In this document: one piece after another, positions 29,190 to 29,247 of the stretch
How positions within the stretch are numbered: position 1 is the stretch's first letter
Layout of the letters: each line of letters starts with the position of its first letter
Assembly: GCA_041662725.1 (NCBI GenBank)
Contig: JBAZRX010000004.1
Span: 2,668 to 66,667, forward strand
DNA from: Minisyncoccota bacterium
GTDB taxonomy: Bacteria; Patescibacteriota; Minisyncoccia; Phycocordibacterales; PALSA-1337
DNA length: 64,000 bases
Direction of reading: 5' to 3'
Notes under the pieces: generated by a model
The model's input: the letters and a program-made list of their open reading frames with translations, nothing else
What the model was told of the DNA's origin: nothing
Database searches by the model: none
Made by a program: the position numbers and the translations under genes

Positions 29190-29197
29190 GGGTATAT

Positions 29198-29243
29198 TGT
29201 ACCACGAGGCCTCGCCTCGAGGCGAGGCCTCGTGGTACAATAG
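29198..29243. repeat. REP core flanked by GTACCAC / GTGGTAC arms, spanning the whole fba-pfkB divergent spacer
   Basis: GTACCACGAGGCCTCGCCTCGAGGCGAGGCCTCGTGGTACAATAG. Read on both strands it yields [13 protein letters not shown] in both extended ORFs. Confidence 0.9.
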
Positions 29244-29247
29244 CAAC

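Follow-up and report, generated by a model that had tools for sequence, protein, structure and literature searches.

In a 64,000-nt stretch of a Minisyncoccota genome (contig JBAZRX010000004.1 of assembly GCA_041662725.1, positions 2,668 to 66,667; hereafter the window), the divergent genes fba and pfkB are separated by 58 nt (29190–29247), and this spacer holds a perfect palindrome. The palindrome is a composite, with a doublet of a repetitive extragenic palindromic (REP) sequence in its centre and a promoter box on each side. The doublet belongs to a dispersed family associated with a transposase gene of the REP-associated tyrosine transposase (RAYT) type. The boxes are conserved in relatives at a fixed distance from the two ATGs, and a REP-free relative displays the empty site. 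We consider it likely that the doublet lies in the permissive linker of an ancestral, itself palindromic, bidirectional leaderless promoter, and that its presence there is near-neutral. The doublet is most likely tolerated rather than used as a switch.

Anatomy of the fba/pfkB spacer

The locus consists of the following parts.

28335–29189, minus strand: fba, class II fructose-bisphosphate aldolase, 284 aa, with the A of the ATG at 29189.
29196–29204, minus strand: extended −10 box TGGTACAAT of fba, hexamer 29201–29196, with 6 nt (29195–29190) to the ATG.
29206–29231, no strand: REP doublet core, the inverted 13-nt units GAGGCCTCGCCTC and GAGGCGAGGCCTC; with the flanking C and G it makes a 28-nt palindrome, 29205–29232.
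29233–29241, plus strand: extended −10 box TGGTACAAT of pfkB, hexamer 29236–29241, with 6 nt (29242–29247) to the ATG.
29248–30300, plus strand: pfkB-family sugar kinase gene (Pfam PfkB match), 350 aa, with the A of the ATG at 29248.

The inverted repeat covers 29195–29242. Its two 24-nt arms (29195–29218 and 29219–29242) are 100% complementary with a gap of 0, and as single-stranded DNA the 48 nt fold at −28.7 kcal/mol (z = −11 against shuffles). The original prediction, made from the letters of the window, described a perfect palindrome in which a single REP element constitutes the entire divergent spacer. The palindrome is indeed perfect, but its true length is 48 nt; it extends further on the left than the string then quoted, and the final G of the quoted AATAG (29243) lies outside it. 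The equation of the REP with the whole spacer does not hold. Repeat-family sequence is confined to the doublet, and the outermost 10 nt on each side (TATTGTACCA and TGGTACAATA) belong not to the repeat family but to the conserved promoter boxes. The core itself, a perfect palindrome of 26 or 28 nt with 77% GC in a genome of 37% GC, has the properties of a REP palindrome.

The placement of the element in the promoter region of both genes is borne out by the conserved −10 boxes on either side of the core. At both genes a TGn followed by TAnnnT ends 6 nt before the start codon and no Shine-Dalgarno motif is present, which fits the layout of an extended −10 leaderless gene, where the box ends 6–7 nt from the start. 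In published work, leaderless bacterial genes are marked by a TANNNT element about 12 nt ahead of the start codon (PMC3160421). The pattern TGNTAYAAT-N6-RTG occurs 7 times in the window against 0.24 expected, always at the start of an open reading frame (ORF), and two of these matches are the palindrome arms. The same spacing prevails in 408 kb of relatives, where TGNTANAAT precedes an ORF-starting ATG by 6 nt in 47 cases and by 7 nt in 28, and almost never by fewer than 6 or more than 10. Shine-Dalgarno motifs are rare upstream of window genes in general. Both mRNAs most likely begin at the A of the ATG (29189 and 29248), judging from the position and conservation of the motif.

Since the −10 hexamers end 6 nt before each ATG, the hairpin would lie upstream of both transcripts, at about −42 to −17 of both promoters; the matching region in relatives consists of the first codons of the opposite gene. 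By inspection, the REP offers no −35-like hexamer 17 ± 1 nt from either −10 box, which is expected because the promoters are of the extended −10 type. Being upstream of both inferred starts, the REP would be neither transcribed nor translated and would not be an attenuator, the role once suggested for it.

An attenuator needs the hairpin in the transcript. Promoters inside the opposite gene would place it in a 5′ untranslated region, as an RNA attenuator or stabiliser of fba and/or pfkB, and the hairpin would form a very stable RNA structure. There is a TTGACA-16-TATGGT match at 28927–28954 (plus strand), but it is within chance: the −35/−10 scan round the spacer (28000–30500) returned only chance-level sites, 9 promoter-like against 7.8 expected. 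The same interval contains no terminator-like site, the hairpin lacks a following T-run on both strands (each has GTGGTACAAT as its flank), and an Rfam scan of the whole window at the gathering threshold gave no match. No Shine-Dalgarno stands between the hairpin and either ATG, and such a role would not account for the conserved −10 box that lies 6 nt from each ATG. We regard an RNA role of this kind as very unlikely. A terminator was ruled out, there being no T-run and the genes being divergent.

The relatives show what the spacer looks like when it carries no REP. The divergent pfkB/fba pair is kept in 16 of 25 species-level relatives and in five closer loci (L026–L030), none of which has REP units. 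In nearly all of them the spacer reads CAT, about 6 nt, ATTnTAnCA, linker, TGnTAnAAT, about 6 nt, ATG, and the −10 boxes stand at the matching distance from the ATG in about 20 REP-free Paceibacteria relatives. When the window is aligned with seven relatives, the only spacer columns without variation are CAT, ATTnTAnCA, GnTAnAAT and ATG, and the REP is a gap in all seven. The linker between the boxes measures 0 nt in L010 and L007, 2 nt in L028, 4 nt in L029 and 17 nt in L026, against 28 nt (the REP) in the window. Because its length varies from 0 to 17 nt among relatives, the linker is a permissive site.

L028 (GCA_038204215.1, JBBRDF010000031.1) is the closest AT-rich relative, with 79% Fba identity. 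Its spacer reads CAT-CTATTT-ATTGTACCA-TA-TGGTACAAT-AAATAG-ATG, and together with both start codons it forms a perfect 38-nt palindrome (L028 2025–2062). On this sequence comparison the L028 spacer represents the empty site: the window has C[26 nt]G where L028 has TA. Because this REP-free spacer is already palindromic, the palindromy of the arms is older than the REP. The 6-nt box-to-ATG stretches of L028 are also symmetrical, beyond what promoter function alone would produce, and arm-to-arm homogenisation (quasi-palindrome correction) may act at that locus.

Insertions of another kind are found in L011 (9830–9960), L013 (8337–8460) and L017 (7820–7966), whose pfkB/fba spacers carry unrelated inverted-repeat sequences of about 110–140 nt that resemble miniature inverted-repeat transposable elements, or MITEs. 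These sit between a −10 box and its ATG. The pfkB/fba spacer is thus colonised repeatedly by insertions in Paceibacteria. No link was seen between the L011 or L013 insertions and the RAYT-like genes of those genomes.

The comparison also bears on the gene starts. It had been observed that both frames can extend through the palindrome, each gaining an N-terminal peptide, or can start just outside it at MTLREHI and MFSKQLD. Both long ORFs are open through the palindrome, but trivially: however it is arranged, the REP unit is free of stop codons in all six frames, and because of this the open frames carry no information. The short starts are favoured. All relatives start at the conserved Met and align from residue 1 or 2, the extension has no counterpart in any of them, and in L028 TAG stops directly upstream of the ATGs close both frames. 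Fba has 284 aa in both the NCBI and JGI annotations, and JGI gives PfkB 350 aa; the NCBI pipeline, PGAP, called a 370-aa product (MFA6295054.1) starting at ATG 29188, which overlaps the opposite-strand fba start codon and translates the palindrome. REP sequence does lie clearly inside intact frames elsewhere in the window, which together with the PGAP call and the open frames lends some colour to translation of one or both proteins through the palindrome. The upstream starts that this would use lie inside the opposite gene, and given the relatives we attach scarcely any weight to it. The comparative evidence favours 350 aa, and the 370-aa model is probably wrong. Leaderless translation from the short starts would give the N-termini MTLREHISEAIEHK and MFSKQLDILAVGDITTDTFIR.

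The REP family and its candidate transposase

The spacer core is made of two inverted copies of a 13-nt unit, GAGGC-CTC-GCCTC, itself composed of a 5-bp stem and a 3-nt loop. With up to 2 mismatches, the 14-mer GAGGCCTCGCCTCG matches the window 63 times, against 0.1 expected. Counted as 13-mers there are 71 units in 29 clusters, arrayed as 13, 26, 39, 52 nt and longer (range 13–76 nt) in either orientation. At up to 1 mismatch, 53 units are present in the window and 1 in 473 kb from 32 loci of related genomes. The many dispersed copies, counted within the 64-kb window, are as expected of a REP family. A second module, GATTTTGCTAAATCGGCCTC, accompanies the 13-nt unit 8 times. REP elements bear the tetranucleotide GT(A/G)G or CGTC as a head at one of their ends (PMC2817692, PMC3733652). 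The 13-nt unit has neither, and the GTGG abutting the spacer copy on both sides is part of the promoter box; the longer module adjoining the RAYT does contain GTAG and GTGG.

The clusters gather round the transposase gene. Between 15 and 33 kb lie 25 of the 29, at most about 10 kb away from the RAYT gene, a pattern suggestive of local (cis) spread. Cluster density is about 1.4 per kb at 15000–33100 and 0.09 per kb in the rest of the window, and an 8.9-kb ORF at 33018–41873 contains no cluster at all.

The association of the core with a Y1/RAYT transposase, as originally proposed, is upheld by the following features.

24571–25158, minus strand: IS200-like Y1 (HUH) transposase, the candidate RAYT of the REP family, encoded 4 kb from the spacer.
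24528–24548, no strand: REP sequence just past the RAYT stop codon, inverted with respect to the copies upstream of the gene.

The candidate matches Pfam Y1_Tnp at 36.4 bits (cut-off 23). The HUH histidines H73 and H75 and the catalytic tyrosine Y133 (of YIHLNP) are invariant in 31 homologs, as an HUH/tyrosine enzyme would have them. A single-sequence search of PDB sequences gave no meaningful match; a 31-sequence profile found E. coli TnpA-REP (4ER8) as its best PDB match, weakly (E = 0.014) and with the motif residues aligned. JGI labels several homologs of 50–64% identity ‘RayT’. The gene is flanked by REP in inverted orientation, the downstream copy being 100% complementary over 20–21 nt to 25301–25321 and 25338–25357. 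A homolog of 54% identity in the metagenome contig L039 (3081–3707) lies between two identical 28-mers. Because the window gene and the L039 homolog are both REP-flanked, the REP–RAYT link is seen twice, independently. The syntenic relative L026 has no RAYT in its orthologous hydS/POR spacer, which is 64 nt long there against a RAYT gene plus REPs in the window. From this arrangement of sequences, the RAYT would have mobilised the REP.

Exact matches to the 28-mer CGAGGCCTCGCCTCGAGGCGAGGCCTCG are limited to 11 stretches of the metagenome collection, which come without exception from three sibling JGI samples (Ga0163144, Ga0163150 and Ga0163153; L031–L041). The contigs concerned show no similarity to the window at the nucleotide level and represent at least one other genome, which suggests sharing or transfer of the REP/RAYT pair among organisms that occur together.

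The family is not confined to spacers. The fba/pfkB copy is intergenic, yet 19 of the 29 clusters lie inside ORFs, in frame (15291–31260 and 44511–44549). An assembly artefact was ruled out, as the repeats keep the 19 ORFs intact and in frame. Set against the REP-free L026 orthologs, 8 conserved genes contain 14 of the clusters, visible as in-frame segments. The genes concerned encode Tgt (3 clusters), PfkB, a HycI-like protease, the NiFe hydrogenase large subunit, POR alpha (2) and beta, ADP-forming acetyl-CoA synthetase (ACD; 3) and an NAD(P) oxidoreductase (2); Obg has one further cluster. The segments fall in loops whose counterpart in the ortholog is shorter or unrelated, and they encode peptide rich in E/A/S/P/R/G/L. 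These in-gene clusters are a more striking context than the spacer copy. Examples, together with a further intergenic copy, are listed here.

29905–29956, plus strand: four in-frame REP units in pfkB, within a loop of which REP-free orthologs have a shorter form.
30639–30677, 30984–31009 and 31222–31260: in-gene clusters of tgt.
23680–23740 and 23859–23910: in-gene clusters of POR.
20324–20432 and 21644–21682: in-gene clusters of ACD.
28310–28335, no strand: REP doublet, tail-to-tail, between the fba stop codon and the next gene start.

A loop-containing variant (GAGGTCAGGCCTC, 12-nt loop, GAGGCCTGACCTC) is found at 9201–9238, 32981–33018 and 42486–42523, in large spacers or where genes end. 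Its palindrome is prolonged by stem extensions particular to each locus, of 7 nt (9201), 2 nt (32981) and 14 nt (42486). The variant at 9201 takes the place of the ordinary A-run/stem/T-run terminator that the relative L043 has there.

The hydrogenase small-subunit gene (hydS), next to the RAYT, provides a second promoter with REP sequence at its −10 box.

25295–25320, no strand: REP doublet, the same in sequence as the spacer copy, immediately adjoining the hydS −10 box.
25322–25330, plus strand: extended −10 box TGGTACAAT of hydS.
25332–25357, no strand: second REP doublet, between the hydS −10 box and the ATG (25366).

The original prediction had noted that one palindrome arm recurs beside the RAYT. 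The string GTGGTACAATAG does recur exactly at 25321–25332, but this arm is not REP sequence; it is the hydS −10 box, and it is present in L026, whose hydS ortholog has TGGTATACT, 6 nt, and then ATG. A 38-nt string comprising a REP doublet and GTGGTACAATAG is identical at 25295–25332 and 29206–29243, which could be taken to mean that the TGGTACAAT arms are part of the mobile element, a REP with outward promoters, Correia-like, that brought promoters to fba, pfkB and hydS. REP-free relatives nevertheless carry TGGTACAAT or close variants 6 nt from the matching ATGs, and neither the 13 copies of the 28-mer found in other metagenome contigs nor the other window copies have the box beside them. A mobile promoter is thus most improbable. 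The hydS gene, leaderless in relatives, should now have a leader of about 29 nt that starts inside a hairpin, ends in TAAAAAAA and lacks a Shine-Dalgarno. Upstream of the hydS promoter, on the side of the RAYT start, lie six tandem 11-nt repeats (GATAAAGAnnn; 25227–25292) with helical-turn spacing, which may be phased A-tracts or sites bound by a protein.

Origin and possible effects of the insertion

The events at the spacer can be pictured as follows. The ancestral locus would have been a symmetrical bidirectional promoter in which two extended −10 boxes (TGnTAnAAT) stood back to back, their hexamers ending 6 nt before the ATGs, and RNA polymerase would have started at the A of each ATG to give leaderless fba and pfkB mRNAs. 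A 26–28-nt REP doublet of the lineage-restricted family would then have landed on the dyad between the boxes. With promoters that do not depend on a −35 element and transcripts that would have no leader, an insertion at that point would spare the −10 boxes, the transcription starts and the coding sequences, which we propose as the reason for its persistence. Its likely sole effects would be to move the promoters 26 bp apart and to make the upstream DNA GC-rich.

Two non-exclusive routes may have brought the doublet to the dyad. One is survivorship, the linker being the only place where an insertion would spare both promoters and both leaderless starts. The other is targeting, by which REPs would insert into pre-existing palindromes. 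Of 18 independent copies of the 28-mer, 6 are inside locus-specific perfect palindromes reaching 6–10 nt past the repeat (null about 0.0004 per site), and two of the three loop-containing variants have palindrome extensions, of 7 and 14 nt. Taken over 20 palindromic copies other than that of the fba/pfkB spacer, 7 lie in locus-specific perfect palindromes reaching 6 nt or more past the repeat, and at fba/pfkB itself the REP-free relatives display the would-be target palindrome. Part of this extension is sub-family consensus (tcc/gga, gat/atc). In the convergent RNase J/SLT spacer, the terminator of L043 is not recognisably homologous to the arms of the window REP hairpin. A stronger version holds that RAYT/REP prefers the dyad (hairpin apex) of existing palindromes and that the 48-bp palindrome is a supercoiling-sensitive cruciform or spacer coupling or throttling the divergent leaderless glycolysis promoters; we think this improbable.

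Co-option of the doublet as a DNA-level regulator could take several forms: an operator for a dimeric protein or the RAYT, a cruciform that masks the −10 boxes under negative supercoiling from divergent transcription, or a spacer that relieves polymerase competition. In favour of such a role are the perfect 48-bp palindrome, with its GC clamp and no loop, and the position of the REP, which would span −42 to −17 of both promoters. The centre of the palindrome is GC-rich (CCTCGAGG), which speaks against the cruciform form, as a GC-rich centre disfavours cruciform nucleation. The shift of the inferred starts from about 33 bp apart in L028 to 59 bp in the window also counts for regulation. The element is nevertheless absent from, and not needed by, all of the roughly 20 relatives, and there is no candidate regulator gene nearby. 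The shared operator of the original prediction finds no support in the relatives, where conservation is limited to the pair of −10 boxes and the pair of start codons; moreover, the core is one of at least 29 clusters, mostly intragenic, and in coding regions an operator role is impossible. A second divergent leaderless pair at 48323–48397, also with 13-nt GC-rich hairpin units between its boxes, is in favour of regulation. On balance a regulatory role seems unlikely, although less so than the other alternatives.

This second pair has a like layout, CAT ATTTTA AGTATAACA ... GAGGGCTACCCTC AAGAGCTACCCTC TGCTATGAT ATGAAC ATG, with two hairpin-like units that may be a decayed or different REP. POR alpha appears to be leaderless with a GTG start (24488–24505; TGATATAAT CTATAG GTG). 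Leaderless translation generally favours AUG, making this GTG unusual.

Several points weigh against a tolerated insertion between leaderless promoters. The leaderless reading is drawn from motif position and conservation, and the NCBI pipeline placed the pfkB start so that translation reads through the palindrome. At hydS a REP has come to lie between the −10 box and the ATG, so the leaderless layout is not inviolable in this genome. The near-neutrality of the insertion is argued from its tolerance; a 77% GC hairpin in place of AT-rich upstream DNA, with 2.5 helical turns added between the promoters, could change expression. The best NCBIfam family for the candidate RAYT, REP_Tyr_transpos (NF047646), scores 40.7 bits against a curated cut-off of 80, and the activity of the RAYT on these units is putative.

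Relation to known elements and significance

The family resembles the REP/REPIN and RAYT systems known as E. coli BIMEs and Pseudomonas REPINs (Nunvar 2010, PMC2817692) in its short GC-rich palindromic units, high local copy number and frequent inverted doublets, and likewise in having an HUH/Tyr IS200-like gene flanked by inverted units and a lineage-restricted distribution. It differs from them in its host, an uncultured, ultra-small member of the Paceibacterota (Parcubacteria) in the candidate phyla radiation (CPR), and in its unit of 13 nt, concatenated in either orientation and without the GT(A/G)G or CGTC head. About two thirds of its clusters are intragenic and in frame, so the family is not ‘extragenic’, and its copies are concentrated within about 10 kb of the transposase gene.

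The in-gene copies are like the Rickettsia palindromic elements (RPEs; PMC10969869), selfish palindromic repeats that occur in frame in unrelated housekeeping genes and add short hydrophilic segments. RPEs measure about 100–150 bp and have no known cognate transposase, whereas the present units are 13 nt, stop-free and RAYT-linked, and the spacer copy is intergenic. In-frame insertion is shared by other copies of the family, but the size of the units and of their 13–76-nt arrays does not fit, and the likeness is an analogy only.

As a small palindromic repeat immediately upstream of genes, the spacer copy also recalls the promoter-bearing MITEs of Neisseria, Correia (CREE) among them (PMC10969869). 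Correia elements supply promoters of their own along with an IHF site; at this locus the promoters are older than the repeat, which contributes none, and this sets it apart from that group. The promoters themselves are like those of the leaderless genes of Actinobacteria and Deinococcus (Zheng 2011, PMC3160421), in which TAnnnT ends 6–7 nt before the ATG, no Shine-Dalgarno is present and the signal is tied statistically to starts. They differ in the extended TGnTAnAAT box, in the CPR host and in the back-to-back fusion of two promoters as a palindrome. In the library searched, no literature on point was found on leaderless mRNAs or on REP/RAYT in CPR/Patescibacteria.

The locus thus takes on a definite anatomy, two fused leaderless promoters that would be split by a selfish hairpin, in place of a speculative operator or attenuator. 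The public pfkB start is likely mis-annotated, with 370 aa instead of 350 aa. The sequences point to routine use in Paceibacteria of extended −10 boxes 6–7 nt from the ATG; this implies leaderless mRNAs and bears on gene-start calling in thousands of metagenome-assembled genomes. They also indicate that a REP family tied to a RAYT can maintain itself in a streamlined genome of less than 1 Mb through the few permissive sites there, namely the linker between back-to-back promoters and, more remarkably, the surface loops of essential enzymes. The REPs inside genes offer a tractable parallel to the puzzle of the Rickettsia elements, with a candidate transposase attached.

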